Positions 1,364 to 62,169 of a DNA stretch of 64,000 bases are shown piece after piece. Origin of the DNA: a virus. Taxonomy: Duplodnaviria; Caudoviricetes. Under the pieces are notes generated by a model. That model worked only from the letters and a program-made list of their open reading frames with translations. It was not told where the DNA came from and searched no databases. The position numbers and the translations under genes were made by a program. Position 1 is the stretch's first letter. Each line of letters opens with the position of its first letter. The stretch is from positions 1 through 64,000 of IMG/VR virus record IMGVR_UViG_3300028833_000119; one strand, 5' to 3'.

Positions 1364-2389
1364 TTATAAACACAAAGCTGCATACATGTCATCGAAGCCG
1401 TCGCCATACAGATTGATGTAAGTATTATATGTTACTTTCACATCACTGTGTCCCAACAGCTTCGAAAGGATCTTAATGTCGATCCCTTTGTAATAGCAAT
1501 TCGTTGCGAATGTATGCCGGAAAACGTGTGCCCCTCGATAGGGAACGTTGGATTCCTTGCACATCTTCTTAATTGTACGAATCAGAACAGGATATTCAAG
1601 ACGTTTGTCTATACCAAACACAAATTCGCTGGACGCTCGCTTTTTCAATATGTTGAGTATAGCTGTTGCTCTTACATTAAGAGGTATAGTACGAATACTC
1701 GCGTCAGTCTTCGGCGTGTCCTGAACATATGCTTTTGATGGCAGGTGAGGATTGACAACGGTTGCACATACATGACAGCGATGTTTATCAGTATCCACAT
1801 CACTCCATCGAAGGGCAAGTGCTTCGCCGGATCGCAAACCTGTCTCAATCATAAAAGCAACACACAGTACAGCGTTTTGATCAGAGTGTGTTTCGATATA
1901 ATCCTGTAACCTGCGCTGTTCTTTTTCATTATATGCCAGAACTTCGCGTGGCTTTTTGATTATCTTCTGGTTTGGCATATCAACTTCCTGCGCAGGATTG
2001 TCTGGGATAATTTTTAGCGACACGGCTTTGCGAAGCGACGCACGAAGCAACTCCAATTGTTTTTTTATTGTACTGAAACTATACCCTTCGTTCGTGATCT
2101 GATTGATATAGAATTGGATATCAAGCGGTGTTACATCGCATACACGTTGCTGTCCGATTGGATATCTGGCGAGCGATTCGTTTGACCCTGTGAGCCTGTC
2201 ATATGTTCCAGATTTGACTTCGTTCTTTTTAAATAGATCCAGCCAAAGCGAAATGTACGTGTAGAGACTGATTGTGTTATCCATAATTAGAGCTCCTTTA
2301 CTGGAGCCTTGCGGTATATTGTAGTTGTCAAAGTTCGCAGCATCTACCTTATTTGAAGTATATAAATTAGCAAAATGATTGTCAAGCAT
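1364..2389 (-). CDS. int: Tyrosine integrase
   Basis: TGLRSGEALAL, HVFRHTFAT and LGHSDVKVTYNTY catalytic motifs (R-H-R-H-Y), preceded by a SAM-like N domain. Confidence 0.95.
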   Translation of the reverse strand: MLDNHFANLYTSNKVDAANFDNYNIPQGSSKGALIMDNTISLYTYISLWLDLFKKNEVKSGTYDRLTGSNESLARYPIGQQRVCDVTPLDIQFYINQITNEGYSFSTIKKQLELLRASLRKAVSLKIIPDNPAQEVDMPNQKIIKKPREVLAYNEKEQRRLQDYIETHSDQNAVLCVAFMIETGLRSGEALALRWSDVDTDKHRCHVCATVVNPHLPSKAYVQDTPKTDASIRTIPLNVRATAILNILKKRASSEFVFGIDKRLEYPVLIRTIKKMCKESNVPYRGAHVFRHTFATNCYYKGIDIKILSKLLGHSDVKVTYNTYINLYGDGFDDMYAALCL

Positions 2390-2966
2390 ATGAAATATCT
2401 CCTGACATAGATATAACTACTTGTTCTGCATTTAAATGTTTCGCACAAAGTTTGTCGATAAGTATTGACATAGGAATATTATATTTTTCACATATTTCAT
2501 CTATTGTTAATTGTTCTCCAAGTATATTGTATATTTTTTTATTTTTGGAAAAACAAACAGGTGTTGATACTGCGTCGATAAATGACATACCTTTATTTAA
2601 CCTCTTGTATAATGTAGCTGGTCTTATTTTGTATTCATCGGCCCACTCTGCTACAGTTTTAGTTTCTCCATTAAATGTAATATATTTACAATTCGATCTG
2701 TTATTACAATTCTTTTTGTGTGTAACAAAACGACAATTATCTGGAGTATAATTTCCATTATTATCAATTCTGTCGATATCTAATCCGGGGTGATATCCAT
2801 TTTCTATCGCCCATTTTTCAAATTCTCTAAAATGTTTCCATTCAGGCGAAATAACTATTCCTCTTCCACCATATCGAGGATATGCTTTTCTGTTTTTGTT
2901 GTAACAACGTTGTTTTATTCCATAATACATTTGTTCAAGTTTTGATTTATGCATTTTATCCTCCAA
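2382..2966 (-). CDS. HNH homing endonuclease
   Basis: YYGIKQRCYN...YPRYGGRGI...LDIDRIDNNGNYTPDNCRF; visibly AT-rich relative to its flanks. Confidence 0.9.
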   Translation of the reverse strand: MEDKMHKSKLEQMYYGIKQRCYNKNRKAYPRYGGRGIVISPEWKHFREFEKWAIENGYHPGLDIDRIDNNGNYTPDNCRFVTHKKNCNNRSNCKYITFNGETKTVAEWADEYKIRPATLYKRLNKGMSFIDAVSTPVCFSKNKKIYNILGEQLTIDEICEKYNIPMSILIDKLCAKHLNAEQVVISMSGDISYA

Positions 2967-2969
2967 CTA

Positions 2970-3010
2970 AAACGCCCGGTCAGCTTCGTGCCGACCGGGC
3001 TTATTTTTTT
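2970..3010. terminator. Bidirectional terminator ending the long leftward operon
   Basis: gcccggtc...gaccgggc hairpin with T runs on both strands. Confidence 0.7.
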
Positions 3011-3195
3011 TATTCAACTTGTAACTTCTGCTGTTTGTCTCGTTTTCGCGAAAGCTTATCGTCCACCTTGGCAGCTTTTCTATTTGCCTTGCAAGAGTTA
3101 CAGTTTCTTCGATTCTTGCAGAACCAACAACCGTCCTGCCCGAGCCAATACCAATGCGGCATCGACGGCCTTGGTTTACGTTTTGCTTTGCCCAT
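3010..3195 (-). CDS. Small Cys-rich hypothetical protein
   Basis: MGKAKRK start; CWFC...CNSC; basic tail. Confidence 0.6.
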   Translation of the reverse strand: MGKAKRKPRPSMPHWYWLGQDGCWFCKNRRNCNSCKANRKAAKVDDKLSRKRDKQQKLQVE

Positions 3196-3403
3196 ATTTT
3201 TTCTTCCGCTGGTTCCACGAATCGATTGCTTCCTGAGCAGACGCACACCATCCGCTGGCAGCGCCGCAACCACCGTCACGGTAATCGCATACAACCATGT
3301 ACTTTATTGTAAACCGTTCCGGAGCCTTACGCGGAAGCACAACGACTTTCGGATATGGAAACGCACAGAACGGACATCTGCGCAGTTCTTTATTATTCAT
3401 CAA
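3176..3403 (-). CDS. Lar-family restriction alleviation protein (Zn ribbon)
   Basis: LRRCPFC...VVC...CGA...EAIDSWNQR pattern. Confidence 0.7.
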   Translation of the reverse strand: MMNNKELRRCPFCAFPYPKVVVLPRKAPERFTIKYMVVCDYRDGGCGAASGWCASAQEAIDSWNQRKKKYGQSKT

Positions 3404-8554: not shown

Positions 8555-8886
8555 TCCCACTTCACCGCCTGTCCGCAATGTGGGCAAAAGCTCCACGTCT
8601 GATACACAAGCACCTTGCATTTCGGACAATACGGATGCCCGAACGCATCAATTTTTGGCTTTATCGCTTCCTGCTCTTTCGGCGTGTCATGAAACTTGTG
8701 TTTCCATTCACTGATTTCATTACATAATCTGTCAATGTCGTTCTGTTTTTTGTGGAGTAATTCATCCTGCTCTTTCAGCACTTTCAGTGTCTCAACCACC
8801 GCAGAGTACGCAAGAGGAAGAACCTCGCCTTCTTGGTGTTTCACCCACCACTCAAGCCCTTTAATGATCGTCTCTCTATCAGTCAT
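8551..8886 (-). CDS. xDxEKVI...LLKEQE family protein with Zn ribbon
   Basis: MTDRETIIKGLE...LKVLKEQD...CPKC...FCPHCG. Confidence 0.7.
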   Translation of the reverse strand: MTDRETIIKGLEWWVKHQEGEVLPLAYSAVVETLKVLKEQDELLHKKQNDIDRLCNEISEWKHKFHDTPKEQEAIKPKIDAFGHPYCPKCKVLVYQTWSFCPHCGQAVKWE

Positions 8887-8900
8887 TCTGATATCTCTTT

Positions 8901-9134
8901 TCACGATAAACCCTCCATCCTGCGATAAGCAGATACTTTTCTGTCATTTAAGAATTCAGCGTATGATATTTCTTTGCATGCCAGGATCATGGCAGTATGT
9001 TTTACACCAGGCATTGCTTTCGCCATATCCATTGCAGTTACAGCATCCTTTGCGATAAAAGAAAAAGAAATGGGCTGGTATCTGCCATGCCCAAAGTGAC
9101 CATGTTTGCAAGTTACACGAAAATACCGCATCAT
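8901..9134 (-). CDS. Hypothetical protein
   Basis: VTCKHGHFG motif; operon-packed. Confidence 0.6.
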   Translation of the reverse strand: MMRYFRVTCKHGHFGHGRYQPISFSFIAKDAVTAMDMAKAMPGVKHTAMILACKEISYAEFLNDRKVSAYRRMEGLS

Positions 9135-9556
9135 ATGATCACCACCGGAAGATCTGGTTTCTTTTTCTTTGGCTCTTCTTTAGCATATCTTTTGTCACCA
9201 TCCATCAGCACCGGGTTTTCGATCTTTTTCTTCGACGGTTTATTTACACGCTTCCGCTTAATTTTTGTCTTTGGCCTATATCCATTTTGAAAAGAAACGG
9301 CCAGACGATAATATCGTTCATTGATCGTTTCAAGGCTGGAGGCATACTTTTTTGATTCTGCAAGATCATTTCCAAGCTTCTCACACCTGGCGCGAAGTGT
9401 TTGAATTTCAGCATCAAGCGCACGAATCATCATGGCTACTTCCTTCATTTTGCATGTATCTGTCGTGCCGCGACAATCCGCAGTATACGGACATTTGCCG
9501 TTCTTACAGGTTGCGGACGCGCTTGCAAATTTCATTGCTACATCAAGATGATCCAT
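9131..9556 (-). CDS. Hypothetical coiled-coil protein
   Basis: Cys-rich N-terminus, coiled coil, Lys-rich tail. Confidence 0.6.
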   Translation of the reverse strand: MDHLDVAMKFASASATCKNGKCPYTADCRGTTDTCKMKEVAMMIRALDAEIQTLRARCEKLGNDLAESKKYASSLETINERYYRLAVSFQNGYRPKTKIKRKRVNKPSKKKIENPVLMDGDKRYAKEEPKKKKPDLPVVII

Positions 9557-9839
9557 TCTTTTTCACCCGCCCTTCGGCAAGACGCTTTGCAGCAGTTGCA
9601 CGTTGCTCATCAGATACAATACGTTTCGGTGTAATCCTGACACAGGAACGATCCACTTCTGCAAAAAGTGCATCCCCAAGATCGCGTTTAATTCTGACAC
9701 AATCTGGTCTGGACTTAGCCTGATTTCGTAGCTTTTTCAACATAGAAGGGATGCTTGTATACACTTCTGCGGTTTTACTTACCTGTGCCGCCGGTATGTT
9801 AATAATGGTTTCCTGTTCTTCATACGGTGTTCTTTTCAA
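9543..9839 (-). CDS. Hypothetical phage protein
   Basis: EQETIIN...AEVYTS pattern; RBS AGAAGGTG. Confidence 0.65.
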   Translation of the reverse strand: MKRTPYEEQETIINIPAAQVSKTAEVYTSIPSMLKKLRNQAKSRPDCVRIKRDLGDALFAEVDRSCVRITPKRIVSDEQRATAAKRLAEGRVKKNGSS

Positions 9840-9877
9840 TTTATCACCTTCTAAATTATATTTTCCCCGCCATTACA

Positions 9878-9908
9878 TATGGGAACATTTTTGTGCTATT
9901 TGTCTACC
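9878..9908 (-). promoter_or_regulatory. Phage-specific promoter motif, copy 1 (GGTAGACA-N17-CCCATA)
   Basis: Same 31-bp geometry as 33332-33362 and 52506-52536; intergenic; points into the downstream operon. Confidence 0.65.
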
Positions 9909-10106
9909 AATTCATTTAAAATAAATAAAAAAAATACCCTGCCAATTTGGACGATGAAATATACGCCCATAATATGGCAGGGTAATAAAACTATTGATAA
10001 TCAATGGAGTGATGCATGGTATCTTACGCGCATGGCGGTCTTTTCAGGACCGCCCAGCAGTAAACGATAAACAGCAAAACAACAAATACAATTTCAGGCC
10101 AGCTCA

Positions 10107-10643
10107 TCAGTCGTCACCCTTTTTGTACGGATCGTCGATCAGCCCCTGTTTTATCAGCCATGCAATGCCTACAGCAACGGCGTCAGATTCATCATCGCAT
10201 GCATATTCCTGTTTTCCGACGAACTGTTCCAACGCTTCGGCAACTTCATTCTTTTCTGCAGAAGCATCATTTGTAATTTTCTTCTTAACAGTAACAGCTT
10301 CTATTTCCTGAAACTGGCGCTGCCCGAATGCCCATGCATACAAATCAGAAACACCGACAACACGATTCAGGATTGATAACACTTTCCCGCTGGCAGACGT
10401 TCCGCTCTTACGGAGAGCTTCTTCACGGACCAGCTCTGCATCCGGATGCGCTGTCAGCAGTCTGCGTAGTTCGGCTGCGATCTCAGACAATACTTCTCCA
10501 TGACATTTTTTCTTTCCGGCATAAGTCTTGTTATTGATATTGCTCAATTCCTACACGGAAACTGTGCGGTCGTCCGGGCTGTATCGAAGAACGGCAAACC
10601 CTGGACGGCGCATGGAAAAATCACAGGCGATGATTTCAGTCAC
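10107..10643 (-). CDS. ruvC: RuvC-like Holliday junction resolvase with in-frame TAG at 10551-10553
   Basis: GTG start coupled to the upstream TGA; MTEIIACDFSMRRPGFAV (first catalytic Asp) then TVSV*ELSN; downstream VREE and DESDAVAVG motifs. Confidence 0.85.
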
Positions 10644-10965
10644 AGGAATCACAACCCTGCTGATTACATGTTACCGTGATATGATCCGAAGAGATCGTAT
10701 TGTCGCCGCATGTTACCGAATACCAGTATTTATTTTCTCGTTCTTCTTTCTCAAGACACATCTTGTGACAATCCGGGCAGTTTGCGTGGTAACGCACACT
10801 GTACGTGTTTGTAAATGTATATGTCGTGCTGATGCACCCGTTGCCCCAGGAAGAATCCTGATAATACTCGTCCGGCGCAGCCCTGAACTTACACCCACAG
10901 TTCGGACATGTAAAAATAACAGATCCGTCTTTTATTTTATTCTTTCCGCTTGAAATGATTTCCAT
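10636..10965 (-). CDS. Zn-ribbon hypothetical protein
   Basis: FTCPNCGC...CPDC. Confidence 0.65.
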   Translation of the reverse strand: MEIISSGKNKIKDGSVIFTCPNCGCKFRAAPDEYYQDSSWGNGCISTTYTFTNTYSVRYHANCPDCHKMCLEKEERENKYWYSVTCGDNTISSDHITVTCNQQGCDSCD

Positions 10966-10968
10966 AAA

Positions 10969-11346
10969 TTATTCACCTGCACTTACTCTTGTCTTTCGAT
11001 CCTCGACATCATATGCAAACATCAGGCGGACAATTGCATGACCGAGATGATCATCCTGTTTGTCGCCAGCAAGGAACGCATAGATATGCTGGATCGCATG
11101 GTTCAGATGTTCAATTGTGTCGATTTTTGTATAGTTCCTTTCGCTGAATGTTTCGCCGTACTTATCAGCGCCATATTTTGCAACCTTGGCAGCATCAAAC
11201 AGTGCGCTGATCGGAAGCAGGTGAAACCCGTATGGTGTATCGGACTGCTTTCCACCATTTTTATTTGTAATAATCGGCGCATCCGGCTCTACGCCAGCGA
11301 TCAATGTTGACGCAATATCTTTACCATTTAAGCATGTCGCGTTCAT
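10969..11346 (-). CDS. dATP/dGTP diphosphohydrolase-like protein (DUF5664)
   Basis: GGKQSD...FHLLP...YGADKYG...NY...HLNHAIQH...HLGHA pattern. Confidence 0.75.
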   Translation of the reverse strand: MNATCLNGKDIASTLIAGVEPDAPIITNKNGGKQSDTPYGFHLLPISALFDAAKVAKYGADKYGETFSERNYTKIDTIEHLNHAIQHIYAFLAGDKQDDHLGHAIVRLMFAYDVEDRKTRVSAGE

Positions 11347-11858
11347 TTGCTTCCTCCTGTCGAACCAAATCCGCCGGTTCGTTTGCCTGCGATCGGTTCG
11401 TCGTTTTCAACTGTGCCATACTTCACGATGATTCCCTGCATAAACCTGTCGCCGGTACCAAGCCTGAACATTTCGTCTGTTGTAATCTTTGCGGCGATAT
11501 GACCTTCATTATCGGAATAGTAATAGTCTTCATCAATGATACCGACACTGTTTCTCAGTTTCATTCCATATTTAAAACCGAGGCCTGACCTCGGTACGCA
11601 CATCAGGAACGTTCCCGGGTCCAGCCTGACGCGAATCCCCGTCGGGATCATCACAGGGATGATGGACGTGAACGCGACAGGAAAAGGCAGGAAGAAATCA
11701 TACCCGGCAGAACCAGGCGTAGCACGGCGTGGCAGCTGGATTGCGTCATAATATCTGTGAATCTCGTCGTTGCCGGAAAAGCACATTTCGCCGCTCGATT
11801 CAAGTTTATTGCATGCGTTTTTGAATTCTTCAAAAGAGACTTTTTGAAACTCAGCCAT
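11343..11858 (-). CDS. dut: Trimeric dUTPase
   Basis: ATPGSAGYDF, PRSGLG, GIIDEDY and RTGGFGSTG motifs. Confidence 0.95.
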   Translation of the reverse strand: MAEFQKVSFEEFKNACNKLESSGEMCFSGNDEIHRYYDAIQLPRRATPGSAGYDFFLPFPVAFTSIIPVMIPTGIRVRLDPGTFLMCVPRSGLGFKYGMKLRNSVGIIDEDYYYSDNEGHIAAKITTDEMFRLGTGDRFMQGIIVKYGTVENDEPIAGKRTGGFGSTGGSK

Positions 11859-12060
11859 TGTTGTCCTCCGTTGTTTCCCATGCTTTCATATCGTTATTCC
11901 AGATTTGTTTTGTGCCATATTCATCTTCGCGGATAATCGTCATACAGCCATACTGCTGGAGGTTTTTGAAATCAGACGCAAAGATAAACGCATCATTTTC
12001 ATGTTTTGTTTTACGGATGGGTTTCATATTCCCTTCGCCGTAGATAAAGTACTTAATCAT
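11851..12060 (-). CDS. Hypothetical protein
   Basis: Operon-packed ORF. Confidence 0.55.
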   Translation of the reverse strand: MIKYFIYGEGNMKPIRKTKHENDAFIFASDFKNLQQYGCMTIIREDEYGTKQIWNNDMKAWETTEDNNG

Positions 12061-12436
12061 GTTTTGACCTTTCTGTTTTTTTAATATCAACCATTGCCCG
12101 TGCGAGATCGTCAATCAGCTGATGGAGGACACGGTCCGACAGCGTTTCTGTTTCCAGCTTCGAGGACATAAGGGATGTTTTCAGATGAAGCAGCTCGTGA
12201 ACAAGCACTTCCTCGAAATCAAACGGCCGCGAAAGCTCTTCGATCTTTTTCGGGTCAACAATCTGGATCATTGCTGACTTTGTGGACTCCTGCCATGAGG
12301 TGCATCCTACGGTATCTGGGATCGCCATATCCGAAGGATGGCACTCTGTCTGGAGAATGATTGCCCAGTCCTGAAGGCCAAGGCGTTTTGTCCATTCGTT
12401 CAGCAATGACATTTCCTTTGGAACTTTTTTAACCAT
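12053..12436 (-). CDS. Zincin-like metallopeptidase-domain protein
   Basis: EEVLVHELLHL (HExxH). Confidence 0.7.
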   Translation of the reverse strand: MVKKVPKEMSLLNEWTKRLGLQDWAIILQTECHPSDMAIPDTVGCTSWQESTKSAMIQIVDPKKIEELSRPFDFEEVLVHELLHLKTSLMSSKLETETLSDRVLHQLIDDLARAMVDIKKTERSKHD

Positions 12437-12942
12437 TAGCTTATCCTTTCAGCATATTGATTATCGCTTGCAAGGTTTACTCCAAGCACCGGATCAAAAT
12501 GCGGAGTTTGTCCAGGAATATAACGGCCAAACTTAATGATAATATTTTTGAATGCTGAGATCCCGGAGAAAATATCCAAAGTTTCTCCGGGATATGGAAT
12601 TACTTTACTTTGCAGCTCTTCTTTTGTATATCCGGTATAGATCACGATATCGTCATCCGTTGCCCAGCGCAAATCATTGATCAGAAAAATCAAATCAACG
12701 CATGAATCGAATGGTTCAAGGCCACCGAACACAATCGCTTTTGTAATCGGATTGGATATATACCTGCTCACAATCGCTTCATTATCTACCTTGTGCGAAG
12801 GCTGTTTTACAAGCTCGCTGTTCTGGCAAATCTGATGACCGTATTCCTTATCACATTTAAACGAGCATGTCGCTGTAGCGATATACATGGACGGGACCTT
12901 ATAATTAATAAAGTCCTCGTCCGTTATTCCTTTGATTAACAT
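12436..12942 (-). CDS. nrdG: Anaerobic RNR activating enzyme-like radical SAM protein
   Basis: CSFKC...C and IVFGGLEP; directly after nrdD. Confidence 0.8.
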   Translation of the reverse strand: MLIKGITDEDFINYKVPSMYIATATCSFKCDKEYGHQICQNSELVKQPSHKVDNEAIVSRYISNPITKAIVFGGLEPFDSCVDLIFLINDLRWATDDDIVIYTGYTKEELQSKVIPYPGETLDIFSGISAFKNIIIKFGRYIPGQTPHFDPVLGVNLASDNQYAERIS

Positions 12943-14882
12943 TACTGCATAATCCCATCATTCGACAGCACGTTCATCCACCGGCGCTTGTCAAATTCCT
13001 TCTTTCGAATTTTCTGGTAACTGCTGGTCGGCGTATAAAACCCAACAACACGGGCGTAAGTGTCAGCGATCGGCTTGCCGCAGACCGGGCATTTCGGCTC
13101 ACTGATAAACGCATGTTTATCCTCGCACACGCTGATCTTTGTTGTGAATGCGAAATAGATCACACCCTGGGATGCAACATAGTTCAGCATCTCCCATGCG
13201 GTTTCTTCGTTCGCAAAGCGATTCTCAATATTGATATGGGCAATACAGCCACCGCCACACTTCTTATCGAACAAAGATCCCAGGCGGCACTTCTCCTGGA
13301 TCGTACATTTTTCCATGAGCGGAATCCACTGGTTTGAATAAATCCAGTACTTGTGCTGTTCAAACAGAAGATTGTCGGCCTGACAGATAACACCGGCGCA
13401 GTTCTCGGCTGGAATCATTTCGATATTGAAAGTGAAGTCACATTCAAAATGATCCTTAACGTCGTTCATAGTATCCAGAATCTGTGTAGCGAATTCAACA
13501 GCTTCCTCTGAATAGAATTTGCAGCCAAGCTCATCAGTTCTTATAAACCCAAACAGGTCCATGACTTCGTACATACCGATACCGCCGATAGTACAGAACT
13601 GTTTGTCCAATTCGACCGCGCCGTCCTGATAGTTCGGGAGCAACCCCTTTTCAATATTACGCTGCAGAACATGGCGCATGGATGCAAGCGCCTTGCAATC
13701 AAGAAGCACACGTTGACGCAGGATTTTCAGGTATTTCCTTTTGTCGAAAAGTCCTTCTTCGTCTTTGGACTCATAGGCAATACGCACAAGGTTTATCGTG
13801 CTGACCCTGCAGGATCCAACAGACAATGCCGTGCCGCCGATGGAGTTAATGAATGCATCCAACTTGGAAGTATCAGACAGCAGCCGGCAGCAGTTAGAAA
13901 GGACGCCGACATTATCGCTGACAAAGAAGTTGGAGTCGCTCCACTTCATATTGTGTGCGGAACACCAACGGGCGAATGGCTCGTCCTGGAATTTGCCGTC
14001 CTTATAAAGCAGGGAATAAGTTAATACAGGATACGTAAACATGTTGATCTCGCGTGTCTCGCTGACCACTTCCATGAAAACCTTCTGTGCTTCAATCAGG
14101 TCTTCAACATGTTCAATTGCCAGCGTACCGTCCGGGAACTCAACGCCGCCGAAAATTGCCTCAATATACGGGCGGTCAAAGATCGACACATTGGTAAACG
14201 CGGACTGGTCGATCCGCAGGAACGGCTGATTGAGCCTGAAGATAAACTTCTGGAACTGCTGGCGGAGATAATAATCAGGATCTTTCATATAGTATCCGCC
14301 TTCGACATCCTTCTTCCAGAAATACCATGCCCAGATCAGAACGTTCGGCATACCAACCGCGCCGGACTGCCGGTTGGACAGGAACGAAACAAATTCGATC
14401 ACATCATCGAAGTATGTGGTCAGATGTTTCGGAGCCTCATTGTTATAGTTTTGCAAAAAGAAAAGGCCCTCGGTTGCGAGCCTTGTGAAGTCGTTAGCCC
14501 AGCAGTACGGGAAGTAACTCGCCGTCGTGCTGTCGTTGAGATAGAACCCACGGCTGAACTCCTGCTCCAGCCATTGCTTTGCCGTTCGCAATCCCCACAT
14601 CTTCTTGATCTCCATGAAGATCTTGTTCAGCCCGAACAGCTTGTCCTCGGACTTACCCTTCTCGGTCATGAAGCTTCGGATGTCGCGGGTGTTTGCGTTT
14701 GCATTCGGGTCAATACTTGCATCAGCCAGCGTATCATGACCCACGAAGTTATTGATAAACTCGGAGAAGTCCAGCTGGCTGGGATGAAGACCATTAATAT
14801 ACTCGAAGTCTTCACCGTATTTTTGTTTCAGTTCTTCTAGAAAACGCTCGAAGTCTTTGGATAATTTCAACTGAATATCCAT
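12942..14882 (-). CDS. nrdD: Class III anaerobic ribonucleoside-triphosphate reductase
   Basis: LSNCCRL, MIPAEN, C-terminal CxxxH...CPVCG and glycyl-radical motif YARVVGFY. Confidence 0.93.
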   Translation of the reverse strand: MDIQLKLSKDFERFLEELKQKYGEDFEYINGLHPSQLDFSEFINNFVGHDTLADASIDPNANANTRDIRSFMTEKGKSEDKLFGLNKIFMEIKKMWGLRTAKQWLEQEFSRGFYLNDSTTASYFPYCWANDFTRLATEGLFFLQNYNNEAPKHLTTYFDDVIEFVSFLSNRQSGAVGMPNVLIWAWYFWKKDVEGGYYMKDPDYYLRQQFQKFIFRLNQPFLRIDQSAFTNVSIFDRPYIEAIFGGVEFPDGTLAIEHVEDLIEAQKVFMEVVSETREINMFTYPVLTYSLLYKDGKFQDEPFARWCSAHNMKWSDSNFFVSDNVGVLSNCCRLLSDTSKLDAFINSIGGTALSVGSCRVSTINLVRIAYESKDEEGLFDKRKYLKILRQRVLLDCKALASMRHVLQRNIEKGLLPNYQDGAVELDKQFCTIGGIGMYEVMDLFGFIRTDELGCKFYSEEAVEFATQILDTMNDVKDHFECDFTFNIEMIPAENCAGVICQADNLLFEQHKYWIYSNQWIPLMEKCTIQEKCRLGSLFDKKCGGGCIAHINIENRFANEETAWEMLNYVASQGVIYFAFTTKISVCEDKHAFISEPKCPVCGKPIADTYARVVGFYTPTSSYQKIRKKEFDKRRWMNVLSNDGIMQ

Positions 14883-55170: not shown

Positions 55171-55502
55171 ATGCGAAGGAATTGAAAGAGAAGATCAGTG
55201 AACAGCAGTTCAAGCTGAAGAAAGCGACGACGAGCGGGATGATGGTTGCGCAGGAGACAGACCGTTTGCGGAATATCCTGGTAAACAGCCTGGACGACAT
55301 TCTTGAGGCGCTTGATATGGCGATTTCTGCGGAGGACAGGATTGAATGCCTGACTGTGGAGATCGAATCTGCGGACGCGGAGCTGCAGGAGAAGGACGAC
55401 GAGATCAAGGCGCTGAAGGAAGAACTGGAAAAACCGAACGGTAAGAAGGTTGCCGGGAAACGTGCGAAACTCCCGGTAGTTGACGAATCCAGTGTCGAAT
55501 AA
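55167..55502 (+). CDS. Coiled-coil hypothetical protein
   Basis: Heptad pattern; 4-nt overlap with the preceding gene. Confidence 0.65.
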   Translation: MNAKELKEKISEQQFKLKKATTSGMMVAQETDRLRNILVNSLDDILEALDMAISAEDRIECLTVEIESADAELQEKDDEIKALKEELEKPNGKKVAGKRAKLPVVDESSVE

Positions 55503-55524
55503 AGTTTACAGTGAACTTTCATAC

Positions 55525-55908
55525 ATGCCGCTGAGTGAGGAAAGAGTCGTCCAGAAACTCATTCGCGACAGGTCGGTATAGGACCAATCTTTCTGGCCCA
55601 TGTTTGATCCGTCCGGTATATTGAGCACGGACGGCGTGTTTGCGCTGAACGAGGACGTACTGTGTATTTATGCGGACCTTGATTCGCTGATTGAGCGAGC
55701 GGGATTAAGTGAGCAGGAGCGCCTGACAGTGGACCTGCTGATGCAGGGATACACGCTTCCGGACATTGCTGACCATTACGGGAAGTCAAGGCAGAACTTC
55801 GAGCTTTTTCTGAAGAAGGCTTGCAAGAAGATTGTAAAGCGCAACAATGCCGACTGGGAAGAATGCACGGGTGCGCGGATCGACGACGGCGAGTGGGAGA
55901 GTGAATAA
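55525..55908 (+). CDS. Sigma region-4-like HTH protein with in-frame TAG at 55579-55581
   Basis: MPLSEERVVQKLIRDRSV*DQSFWPMFD...; AGLSEQERLTVDLLMQGYTLPDIADHYG HTH. Confidence 0.65.
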
Positions 55909-59678: not shown

Positions 59679-59731
59679 CATGCTTGCATATTTGCCGATT
59701 TATTTAATTATATAAGAGGGAAGGGATTATA

Positions 59732-60415
59732 TTGGCGACAGGACATAAAATTATCGAACCTTCCGGCAGGACTTCTGTTGCGATGATCGATAACCATGAA
59801 AGTGCCGTTGCGTATGTGAACGGCATATAGGAGAAGTGGTCCGGTTATTGCGATAAAAATTGGTTGAACGATTCCGGTGATGTGTATACGCCGGAATTGA
59901 AGATCAAGTATTTTCTTGACGGACTTGCTTATTTGCTGCTGATCGGAAACACGGATGGCATAGAAACGAACTATAAACGTGTGATGAATGCGAAGCGTGA
60001 GATTCCGGCGTCAAGCTGTCCGAGTGAAATCGAGAACCTGTTGTATGGAACCGGATGCTCGACGGATTACGCAGAGGAAGAGGAAGCCCAGTTCCGGGAT
60101 ATGCTGGACAGGCTTGACAGCAAAGCGGAGCCTTATGAATGCAGGAAAACAAAACGAGACAGGAAATGCAGCCTGTTTGCGAAGAAACTGCAGAAAGGCA
60201 TACCGGACGGAGACTGGTATCTTGTTGATACGGAAGGAAGATTCAGGGTCGGCGACCAATGCTATATTATCGAGGATAACGCTGTACAGTACCAGCCGGT
60301 CCAGACGGAGTACGGCAATTATTACGCGATGGATAAAGTCCTGTATGCTGGCGGCAAATTCTACGATATGAATTATGACGAAGTGATTGTCCTTCAAGTC
60401 GGGACGGAGACGTAA
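59732..60415 (+). CDS. Conserved hypothetical protein with in-frame TAG at 59828-59830
   Basis: TTG start after the GAGGGAAGGG RBS; MATGHKIIEPSG...AVAYVNGI*EKWSGYCDKNW continues in frame into ORF 59864-60415. Confidence 0.7.
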
Positions 60416-60428
60416 AACCCGTCTGCAT

Positions 60429-60535
60429 AAGACGCACACAGCAAACCATATACATATTAAAAACTTCTTAATAATAGTTTTCCGGCAACGCCTCCTGACA
60501 GTGCGGACCAGTGCCGGCCTTTTTATTGCGTCTTG
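60429..60535 (+). repeat. AAGAC(G/C)C...CAGCAAA RNA repeat, copy 2
   Basis: aagacgca/tgcgtctt stem with internal hairpins. Confidence 0.7.
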
Positions 60536-60541
60536 TCTTAT

Positions 60542-60615
60542 TGCCTGTTAGCTCAGTCCGGAAGAGCGTCGCACTGTTAATGCGAATGTCACAGGATCGA
60601 AGCCTGTACAGGCAG
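60542..60615 (+). tRNA. tRNA-Asn (GTT), CCA not encoded
   Basis: Acceptor tgcctgt/acaggca; anticodon arm tcgca-ctGTTaa-tgcga; T arm acagg-atcgaag-cctgt; G73. Confidence 0.9.
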
Positions 60616-60713
60616 CGAATTGCGGTATAAGTTTTCGGACTTATATCTGGGTGGCCGGATGCGTCCGGCTTCCTGCACCAAGCTGTGCGAAACATCCGCC
60701 GAACGGCGGACAT

Positions 60714-60793
60714 GGCCGTGTATGCAAAATGGAAAAGCAGTGGCTTCTAAACCCATGGAATTATTCTGGGTTCGACTCCCAGCTCGGCCACCA
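60714..60793 (+). tRNA. Amber suppressor-type tRNA (anticodon CTA, 60747-60749) with Leu-like body and encoded CCA
   Basis: Acceptor ggccgtg/ctcggcc, A73, CCA; D arm tgc-aaaatggaaaa-gca; anticodon arm gtggc-ttCTAaa-cccat (C31:C39 mismatch); ~9-nt variable region; T arm ctggg-ttcgact-cccag. Confidence 0.8.
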
Positions 60794-60856
60794 AAGACGC
60801 TTGCAGCAAACTTGAAGCATCAGACTGTTAATCTGAAGAAGCTAATCGGCGTCTTG
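60794..60856 (+). repeat. RNA repeat, copy 3, with tRNA-Asn-like anticodon arm
   Basis: aagacgc/gcgtctt stem, CAGCAAA and tcaga-ctGTTaa-tctga. Confidence 0.75.
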
Positions 60857-60866
60857 CTACATTTTG

Positions 60867-60928
60867 AAGACCCATACAGCAAACAACTGATGAAGCTACA
60901 GAGGATGATGAGCAGAAAGCGGGTCTTG
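60867..60928 (+). repeat. RNA repeat, copy 4 (compensatory GACCC/GGGTC stem)
   Basis: aagaccc-atacagcaaa...gggtcttg. Confidence 0.7.
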
Positions 60929-60948
60929 GATATTTCAGCCAAGAGGAA

Positions 60949-62169
60949 GTGAAGGGATTGAGCAGGTCTATTGAATCGCTCAATGTAAAGGAAAAAGCGA
61001 GCCTTGTCCAGGAGATGCTGGACAAGAAAACCGGGGTTTTGGATAAAGACTGGTGCGACATGGTCATGGATTACGATCTGGATTGTAATCCGGAAACCCT
61101 GCGGAAAGCCGGGGTCGGCGTAAAGCTTGCAAGCGACGCAGGAATGTGTTTCCCGATTGACGGCGCTGTAACCCGCGACGTTATGGATGGTTATGTTGAG
61201 CGCCAGAAACTCTATGACCTTCAACGCGGAATCAGGAAAGACCTGCGCGAACAATCCAGAAGCGAGCTGCTTCGGGAGATGATCTGCAACGCGATTAAAG
61301 CGCTGCCGAAGATCAATGTGTCTGTATGCCAGGAGAGAGTTGAACATGAAGCCGACAGAAGCCGCGAGCTGGTTGTCGGGATCGGTGATTTCCATTACGG
61401 CGCCAGGTTTACGGTGGAAGGCCTGTACGGCGAGGTGCTGAATACGTATGATCCGTATGTGTTTGATGAACGGATGGGAATGCTGATTCACGAGGTTAAA
61501 CAGATTGCGAAAACACACAAACCGGAAATGATTACCGTGATGATTGTTGGCGATATGCTGGACGGAATGATTCATACATCGCAGCTGACGAGGCTTGAAT
61601 ACGGCGTTGTCGAGAGCGCGATGCGGCTCAGTGAATATCTTGCGCAGTGGCTTGCCGAACTGAATCGCGAGACAGGCGTCCCGGTTCGTGTGTACGCTGT
61701 CCGTGGAAACCACGGCGAGATCAGGCCGCTCGGAACCAAGGCAGGACAGTTCCCGGAGGAAAACCTGGAGCGGGTTGTTATGCATTACCTGGCCATGCGT
61801 TTTGAGGACAACGACGTTATCCTCGTAATGGACGATGACGCGCCGATGAGCCGCGTTGTTGATGTGCTGGACTACAACTTCCTGCTGCTCCATGGACAGG
61901 GAAACGACATTGAAACAATCGCCCGTGACTGCCAGACACTCTATAATAAGAAGATAGATGTGTTTATGGTCGGGCATTTACATAAAAACCAGACGTTCAC
62001 CGCAGGAATGGGACGGAACGGCAATGTGCTGATCGAGCGGATCCCGAGCCTGTGCGGAATGGATCCCTACGCGCAAAGCAAAGGATACGGGTCTCCGCCA
62101 GGTGCGACTGTGATCGTGATGGAAAAAGGATACGGACGCAAGTGTGTGTATCCGATTGTATTAAGCTAA
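60949..62169 (+). CDS. Calcineurin-like metallophosphoesterase
   Basis: GDFHYG, GDMLDG, GNHG, LLHG and GHLH motifs. Confidence 0.88.
   Translation: MKGLSRSIESLNVKEKASLVQEMLDKKTGVLDKDWCDMVMDYDLDCNPETLRKAGVGVKLASDAGMCFPIDGAVTRDVMDGYVERQKLYDLQRGIRKDLREQSRSELLREMICNAIKALPKINVSVCQERVEHEADRSRELVVGIGDFHYGARFTVEGLYGEVLNTYDPYVFDERMGMLIHEVKQIAKTHKPEMITVMIVGDMLDGMIHTSQLTRLEYGVVESAMRLSEYLAQWLAELNRETGVPVRVYAVRGNHGEIRPLGTKAGQFPEENLERVVMHYLAMRFEDNDVILVMDDDAPMSRVVDVLDYNFLLLHGQGNDIETIARDCQTLYNKKIDVFMVGHLHKNQTFTAGMGRNGNVLIERIPSLCGMDPYAQSKGYGSPPGATVIVMEKGYGRKCVYPIVLS

Follow-up and report, generated by a model that had tools for sequence, protein, structure and literature searches.

A phage tRNA with a CUA anticodon, probably of leucine type, and three in-frame TAG codons in a gut virus genome

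Phages whose genetic code differs from that of their host have been described with only two reassignments, glutamine for TAG and tryptophan for TGA (Borges et al., bioRxiv 10.1101/2021.08.26.457843), and the stop-recoded gut phages that carry a suppressor transfer RNA (tRNA) include the crAss-like, Lak, Garnet, Topaz and phAss-1 phages (10.1101/2021.08.26.457843; Peters et al., PMC9523058). A jumbo-phage survey published in 2026 covers only codes 15, 90 and 91, and a study of theta ribozymes (bioRxiv 10.1101/2023.06.13.544163) predicted glutamine, tryptophan, isoleucine and tyrosine as isotypes of phage suppressor tRNAs, with no leucine among them. Elsewhere, UAG is read as leucine in the mitochondria of green algae and chytrids and by certain ciliates, including phyllopharyngean ones (PMC6551751, PMC6131824, PMC11687900). 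The full-text literature searched holds no report of TAG to leucine in a phage, and papers beyond that set may exist. Here we describe an 80-nucleotide (nt) amber suppressor tRNA gene with anticodon CUA at positions 60714-60793 (+ strand) of a 64,000-nt stretch of phage DNA, referred to below as the window, which is the first 64 kb of the linear, 85,213-base IMG/VR record IMGVR_UViG_3300028833_000119. We consider it highly probable that this phage-encoded amber suppressor is of leucine type, a tRNA-Leu(CUA) that decodes TAG as leucine.

The locus has much in common with the gut phages that use codes 15 and 4. Like them, this phage of gut bacteria has a tRNA(CUA) and in-frame TAG codons within its genes and does without TAG as a stop; no synthetase gene was found in it, so that charging would fall to a host enzyme, and in relatives of this phage the TAG codons are concentrated in late virion genes. 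It differs from the code 15 phages in that the inserted residue would be leucine rather than glutamine, carried by a tRNA of apparent leucine type, and from the code 15 and code 4 phages alike in the extreme sparsity of the recoding, which involves three codons in 85 kb. Another parallel, in terms of the tRNA, is the supP allele of leuX in E. coli, in which a tRNA-Leu body with a CUA anticodon inserts leucine at UAG, the leucyl-tRNA synthetase being blind to the anticodon. The body and anticodon are of the same kind here, and the inserted leucine is suggested by sequence comparison; supP/leuX suppressors are, however, single-mutation laboratory alleles of the host, whereas the present gene is natural, phage-borne and long diverged, has a reduced variable arm and stands in a genome whose TAG stops have been purged. 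NCBI translation tables 16 and 22 (chlorophycean and Scenedesmus mitochondria) also assign UAG to leucine. These organelle and protist cases concern the same codon and the same amino acid, but they are whole-genome codes, whereas here a virus would impose the reading on a standard-code bacterial host by means of one tRNA. The suppressor tRNAs of the theta-ribozyme study resemble ours in lying, with a CUA anticodon, in small tRNA clusters of gut Caudoviricetes, and differ in their predicted isotypes and in that the Rfam scan found no hepatitis delta virus (HDV)-like family beside this tRNA.

ARAGORN and Rfam both place the tRNA at exactly 60714-60793, the latter with 39 bits for RF00005 against a gathering threshold of 29, and thereby confirm the initial annotation, in which a cloverleaf with a CTA anticodon, A73 and an encoded CCA had been recognized. 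In the ARAGORN drawing the acceptor stem has 7 base pairs (bp) with a U6:U67 mismatch, the D arm has a 3-bp stem and an 11-nt loop, the nucleotide at position 26 is absent, and the 5-bp anticodon stem ends in a C31:C39 mismatch below the loop UU-CUA-AA; the variable region has 9 nt and no stem, the T arm is normal, and A73 is followed by the encoded CCA. The irregular anticodon stem pointed out in the initial annotation is thus real, both in its C31:C39 mismatch and in the gap at position 26; that these irregularities weaken suppression, as suggested there, is a possibility. The core nucleotides U8, A14, G18G19, U33, a purine at position 37 and the T-loop TTCGA are all present in the window copy, together with G1:C72, A15:U48 and a D arm resembling that of class II tRNAs. 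The minimum-free-energy fold of the tRNA by itself is not a cloverleaf and is no better than that of shuffled sequences, which is usual for tRNAs and counts as evidence neither way. ARAGORN labels the gene 'Pyl', as it does any tRNA with a CUA anticodon. We rejected the pyrrolysine reading, which needs a 3-nt variable loop, a 6-bp anticodon stem and a small D loop where we find 9 nt, 5 bp and 11 nt, and which is further contradicted by the lack of a tRNA-synt_2d domain (PylRS) in the record and in four relatives.

The relatives are IMG/VR contigs found with the exonuclease gene, a resolvase gene and a gene of unknown function as queries, and four of them were taken at length. In nearly all relatives that cover the region, a tRNA(CUA) sits between the gene of unknown function and the exonuclease gene. 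Among seven distinct syntenic copies 91.4% of stem cells are paired, as compared with 37-48% in slid-register controls, and compensatory changes on both sides are found in 18 of the 20 stem pairs, a level that none of 500 shuffles reached. CTA is invariant in the seven aligned copies and in four more. The variable region, on the other hand, ranges from 5 to 17 nt across copies, with a proper class II variable stem kept in those of the relatives L024, L030, L091 and L094. The suppressor tRNA is genuine and conserved and is not a chance resemblance. We also note that in three of the seven copies (the window, L006, also listed as G005, and L033) a mismatch at 31:39, either C:C or A:C, shortens the anticodon stem to 4 bp; its recurrence hints at a possible functional feature.

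TAG is missing from the ends of genes. Genes were called with a codon-usage score and greedy removal of overlaps, giving 120 genes for the 85-kb record. TAA is the stop codon of 61 and TGA that of 59, while TAG terminates not a single one; the probability of seeing none would be 0.002 if TAG had a 5% share of stops and 3e-6 if it had 10%. No credible TAG-ended open reading frame was found in the gaps between called genes. Some TAG-ended frames are antisense or out of frame and have negative coding scores, and the remainder are short opening segments of three genes, in which a strong coding signal continues past the TAG. This independent derivation yields the same picture of three in-frame TAG genes and no TAG stops as had been drawn from the window at the outset. 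The three codons lie at 10551-10553 (- strand), 55579-55581 (+) and 59828-59830 (+), one per gene; all three read TAG-GA, and alignments are conserved on both sides of each.

The first of the three genes (10107-10652, -) encodes a RuvC-like Holliday-junction resolvase in which TAG is codon 34; the Pfam RuvC domain matches residues 8-164, across the TAG, and the protein belongs to PHROG 159 (E 9e-15). The catalytic N-terminal aspartate strand lies upstream of the TAG, and the resolvase of the relative G003 has a TAG at the same column. The second (55492-55908, +) encodes a sigma-factor-like helix-turn-helix regulator (phrog_3512, E 1e-8) with TAG as codon 30; its GTG start is fixed by homologues beginning MSNKV, 11 residues before the ATG at 55525, and its TAG is kept in the relative G001. 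The third (59732-60415, +) is the gene of unknown function, with 227 codons, TAG at codon 33 and a TTG start behind a AGGGAAGGG ribosome-binding site. It lies directly upstream of the tRNA cluster, and we refer to it as the tRNA-adjacent gene. Both AGGGAAGGG and the coding sequence are conserved, the latter through the TAG, which is kept at the same column in most relatives; the family counts 162 matches and keeps its place next to the suppressor tRNA. A fourth readthrough candidate, at 2382-3269 (-), was rejected, as it consists of an HNH endonuclease gene starting just after a TAG and an upstream part that is not coding. The endonuclease gene itself (2382-2966, -), which starts immediately past the TAG, has atypical codon usage and is probably a mobile insertion. 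Other TAGs within long frames read with TAG as sense are positioned upstream of the true starts.

Assembly errors had been named beforehand as a possible source of the in-frame TAGs, and contigs from other studies rule this out for TAG 59828-59830 and the tRNA. Contigs from a second sheep study, made from RNA libraries, are identical to the window over 59721-60438 and 60556-61500, which is not proof of transcription; variant strains from an older gut study and a goat study carry many nearby differences yet keep the TAG at 59828-59830, and the tRNA is unchanged in the goat-study contig that covers it. The same TAG columns recur in independent assemblies. Domain searches for release factors, class I synthetases and synthetases of PylRS/PheRS type found none in the 85-kb record or in the four relatives, all of which are incomplete, so that the earlier remark that no phage synthetase or release factor is visible in the window extends to the record as a whole.

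The question of the isotype was approached with a reference set of 104 distinct tRNAs, taken from three genomes of Clostridia that belong to the probable lineage of the host. The combination of A15:U48 with A73 is found in all 10 tRNA-Leu of this set and in only 4 of the 94 other tRNAs, and it is present in 10 of the 11 distinct suppressor copies, the window copy included; A73 is present in all 11 (the 3' end of the L093 copy was read by hand). In the same genomes tRNA-Lys, tRNA-Tyr and tRNA-Ser have G15:C48, and tRNA-Ser and most tRNA-Gln have G73. By global similarity the L030, G005 and L033 copies are closest to tRNA-Leu; the top six matches of both L030 and G005 are leucine tRNAs throughout, and L030 agrees with tRNA-Leu(CAA) at 63 of 81 positions. 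Glutamine is never the sole best isotype of any copy and ties with arginine in one (G002). The initial annotation had argued from A73 and a leucine-like architecture, and this argument is strengthened by the shared signature and by the long-arm syntenic copies, which match tRNA-Leu best.

We base the isotype call on these signature positions in place of profile scores. Hidden Markov models (HMMs) built for each isotype from the 104 tRNAs and run with nhmmer give local alignments driven by the T arm and the acceptor stem; they are clear only for L030 and G005, both leucine, and are misleading for the window copy. A BLAST search of 50,697 phage records with the tRNA and two relatives as queries returned only short, non-significant T-arm matches, useless for the isotype. 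The leucyl-tRNA synthetase of E. coli ignores the anticodon; it recognizes the tRNA by A73 and by its tertiary core and can do without the variable arm. Such latitude of the enzyme would account for both the charging of a tRNA with a CUA anticodon and the repeated shrinkage of the arm. For the window copy the assignment to leucine rests on the signature positions, the relatives and the codon columns.

For the codon columns, genes of relatives were called with TAG as sense and eight related records were compared all against all, with at least 8 aligned columns required on either side of a TAG. The residues opposite TAG (n = 71) are leucine 39, isoleucine 8, valine 5, arginine 4 and tyrosine 4, followed by alanine, glutamate, lysine and glutamine with 2 each and phenylalanine, methionine and proline with 1 each; the background share of leucine is 7.4%. 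Leucine is first or tied for first in 20 of 31 independent TAG columns by hand count (P 9e-16, or 4e-6 against a null of 25%). As the aligned leucine codons in relatives are mostly CTG, CTT and CTC, the pattern points to conservation of leucine and not to mutational nearness of TAG to TTG. The resolvase of the relative G004 contains five TAGs, and that of G003 has leucine at all five positions. Two outliers to the pattern both lie in the relative G001 (L011): codon 562 of a terminase-homologous reading frame (8851-10581) is a TAG opposite an invariant arginine, and codon 52 of the next frame downstream (10582-12165) is a TAG opposite a tyrosine/phenylalanine column.

For the window's own three sites, homologues were sought in a collection of 5.8 billion proteins. 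Each of the three families splits into many calls that begin after the TAG and proteins of full length. Of the full-length proteins with a 'Q' at this column, five were checked, and in all 5 the underlying codon is a TAG that gene calling under code 15 had rendered as glutamine; an 'L' stood for a true leucine codon in 3 of 3; the tallies that follow leave out the Q entries. Homologues with a sense codon have leucine 15, isoleucine 3 and threonine 1 at site 59828 in the tRNA-adjacent gene, leucine 8, valine 9 and isoleucine 4 at the resolvase site, where the closest homologue (72% identical) has a true leucine codon, and leucine 4, methionine 1, tyrosine 1 and cysteine 1 at the site in the sigma-like gene. 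Pooled, leucine accounts for 27 of 47. That leucine would be the inserted residue, with tyrosine as the alternative, had been proposed from the window alone, and both the columns of the relatives (tyrosine 4 and glutamine 2 of the 71) and those of the window favor leucine. Judged by these columns and by the tRNA, TAG is almost certainly decoded as leucine.

We suggest the following working of the system. The tRNA-Leu(CUA) would descend from a long-arm, class II tRNA-Leu, with a variable arm shrunk to 9 nt in this phage, and its gene, placed at the head of the packaging/virion module, would be transcribed there. The host leucyl-tRNA synthetase would charge it, ignoring the anticodon and reading A73 and the core (A14, A15:U48 and the position of G18G19), and the charged tRNA would decode UAG as leucine in competition with host release factor 1. 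Purging of TAG from all gene ends would make the readthrough harmless to other genes. Full-length resolvase, sigma-like regulator and tRNA-adjacent protein would then be made only once the tRNA is present, which amounts to a sparse 'amber gate'. Charging by the host enzyme, competition with release factor 1 and a role in timing are what we infer, and we put forward the gate that ties the three genes to the phage tRNA as a hypothesis.

The alternative that fares best accepts TAG as leucine and denies it a regulatory role, so that the three TAGs would be neutral, inherited from an ancestor in which recoding was denser or produced by drift among leucine codons. The number of TAGs does vary widely, from about 20 supported sites in G001 to three here, and some relatives that have plain leucine codons at the same columns still keep the tRNA. 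The conservation of the columns argues the other way. In about four-fifths of the 120 members of the tRNA-adjacent family that are listed, with identities of 37-67%, the call is either truncated after the TAG column or has a code-15 'Q' there, and the column is likewise conserved in the resolvase and the sigma-like gene. A single step from TAG to TTG would remove each of the codons, and because the column has been retained over this range of identity in spite of it, the alignments suggest that the three TAGs are kept on purpose. The same is suggested by the base after TAG: of 38 supported sites, 35 have a purine there, as compared with 63% after leucine codons (P 5e-5), far above expectation; a purine after TAG, a context of the TAG-GA type, favors suppression in E. 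coli. The supported sites of G001 lie mainly in the virion module, upstream and downstream of the terminase-homologous gene, in line with the regulation of late genes modelled by Borges et al. Weighing these points, we regard neutral TAGs as a possibility to be reckoned with, though a less likely one than TAGs with a function.

Several observations weigh against tRNA-Leu(CUA) and its amber gate and should be set out together. The window copy has the U6:U67 and C31:C39 mismatches, no nucleotide 26 and no long variable arm, and is the most eroded of its family; the absence of the class II arm weakens the description 'typical tRNA-Leu', though not 'charged with leucine'. In global similarity its best matches are serine, lysine and methionine, then leucine, all nearly tied, and its best local HMM match is lysine with 19 bits. 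There are only three TAG sites in the genome. The record is 74% complete according to CheckV, and other translation factors could lie off the contig. In the resolvase column leucine, valine and isoleucine occur in nearly equal shares, and a few TAG columns in relatives face an invariant arginine, or else tyrosine. The tally thus separates leucine from isoleucine (or valine) short of certainty, and charging may be mixed.

On the strength of such observations one might suppose that the tRNA carries another residue (isoleucine, valine, tyrosine or lysine) or a mixture, and that the leucine-rich columns merely reflect tolerance for hydrophobic residues. The resolvase column and the local resemblance of the window copy to tRNA-Lys agree with this, as do columns in some relatives that are mostly isoleucine, or tyrosine and phenylalanine, and bacterial tRNA-Tyr likewise combines A73 with a long arm. 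Opposite TAG, however, leucine is found 39 times in 71 and any other residue 8 times or fewer; tyrosine is aligned in 1 of the 31 columns and lysine in 2. The isoleucine, valine, methionine and lysine synthetases depend on the anticodon, the bacterial tyrosine enzyme uses the long arm that the window copy does not have, and tRNA-Lys and tRNA-Tyr of the host lineage carry G15:C48 where the suppressor has A15:U48. We therefore think it improbable that another residue, or a mixture, is inserted.

Charging with glutamine, by which TAG would be read as in the crAss-like, Lak and other gut phages (code 15), is the sole TAG reassignment reported for phages in searchable papers, and public protein databases do show Q at these positions. 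Moreover, many tRNAs given a CUA anticodon are mischarged with glutamine in E. coli. The database entries lose their weight since all five that were checked are the gene caller's rendering of a TAG; glutamine stands opposite TAG in 2 of 71 instances and, Q entries aside, at none of the window's three columns, and the columns holding TAG have a hydrophobic character. In the host lineage tRNA-Gln mostly has G73, as against A73 in the suppressor, whose relatives are long-armed and leucine-like. We consider code 15 very improbable here. That we are dealing with a tRNA pseudogene in decay and with TAGs that act as genuine stops and split or inactivate three genes, as the two stem mismatches of the tRNA, its missing nucleotide 26 and its modest Rfam score of 39 bits might suggest, is hardly credible in view of the strong covariation across syntenic copies, the unchanged tRNA sequence in variant strains of other studies, the conservation of both halves of a resolvase whose catalytic strand lies upstream of the TAG, and the lack of a single TAG among 120 gene ends.

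In the searchable literature, TAG in phages goes only to glutamine and TGA only to tryptophan, since only those host synthetases tolerate suppressor anticodons; a leucine-type suppressor would open a third way, by means of an enzyme to which the anticodon is of no account. Three TAGs per 85 kb are invisible to coding-density tests for alternative codes, and many such genomes are probably filed under the standard code with essential genes called as fragments. Where public collections have Q at the TAG, alignments, structure predictions and family profiles of this clade will contain wrong residues in hydrophobic cores. Among the entries of this kind we observed are P0005, P0006, P0010, P0021 and P0143 (from L091, L092 and L095-L097), which have TAG rendered as Q at hydrophobic, mostly leucine positions. 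We see an even balance for and against the broader proposition that a widespread clade of Clostridia phages in the ruminant gut reads TAG as leucine (a code not described for viruses) by means of a fast-evolving tRNA-Leu(CUA) that has lost its arm repeatedly, that sparse users such as this phage have a checkpoint of three conserved TAGs, each followed by a purine, which makes the resolvase, the sigma-like regulator and the tRNA-adjacent protein depend on the phage tRNA, and that such genomes are missed or mistranslated as glutamine by standard pipelines. The single conserved TAGs in a resolvase and a sigma-like regulator offer a concrete test case for the timing of phage genes by a suppressor tRNA, and compact leucine suppressors with reduced arms may also interest those who engineer suppressor tRNAs.

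The setting of the locus is likely that of a phage infecting Clostridia in the ruminant gut, given that near-identical DNA is present in sheep, goat and bovine gut metagenomes and that the anaerobic ribonucleotide reductase gene (12942-14882, -) shares 81-89% identity with counterparts in Oscillospiraceae and Acutalibacteraceae, where they lie on large chromosomal contigs, and in a complete Clostridiales genome. This level of identity suggests that the phage gained the reductase recently from its host lineage. Among the other genes of the record are those for a large DNA polymerase and an SbcD-like exonuclease. On the 3' side of the tRNA genes follow long unbroken reading frames, on through a gene of 2,501 codons, and the counterpart of this module in relatives contains a large terminase.

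As regards the product of the tRNA-adjacent gene, profile searches gave no match to a Pfam domain, a PHROG family or a PDB sequence. A structural model reached a predicted local distance difference test (pLDDT) score of 58 with 10 sequences and 83 with 57, and a Foldseek search of the latter model against the PDB gave nothing at E 0.001 or better. VIA-align matched only a small C-terminal beta-barrel to those of the IstA and Mu transposases with Z 6.4 over 58 residues, a value within the chance range for the tool.

By ARAGORN the window has two tRNA genes, and the full record has the same two. Besides the suppressor there is a tRNA-Asn(GTT) at 60542-60616 (+; Rfam 60.9 bits), the neighbor of the suppressor in a small tRNA cluster; it is no part of the recoding, and the same pairing of tRNA-Asn with the suppressor is seen in some relatives (L091, L002). 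The 97-nt spacer between the two genes (60617-60713) is predicted to form four hairpins with -40.9 kcal/mol (z -3.7, equaled by none of 200 shuffles). When 60400-61000 was scanned with Rfam at permissive settings, neither a ribozyme, HDV-like or otherwise, nor any other family came up beside the tRNAs. Short elements at 60429-60535 and 60794-60856, and also at 60867-60928, flank both tRNA genes; they begin with AAGACGC followed by CAGCAAAC and close with GCGTCTTG. Their folds are no better than those of shuffled sequences (z -0.5 and -1.5). The element directly 3' of the suppressor contains a hairpin with a GTT anticodon loop like that of tRNA-Asn, and the flanking elements could be tRNA remnants or processing signals.

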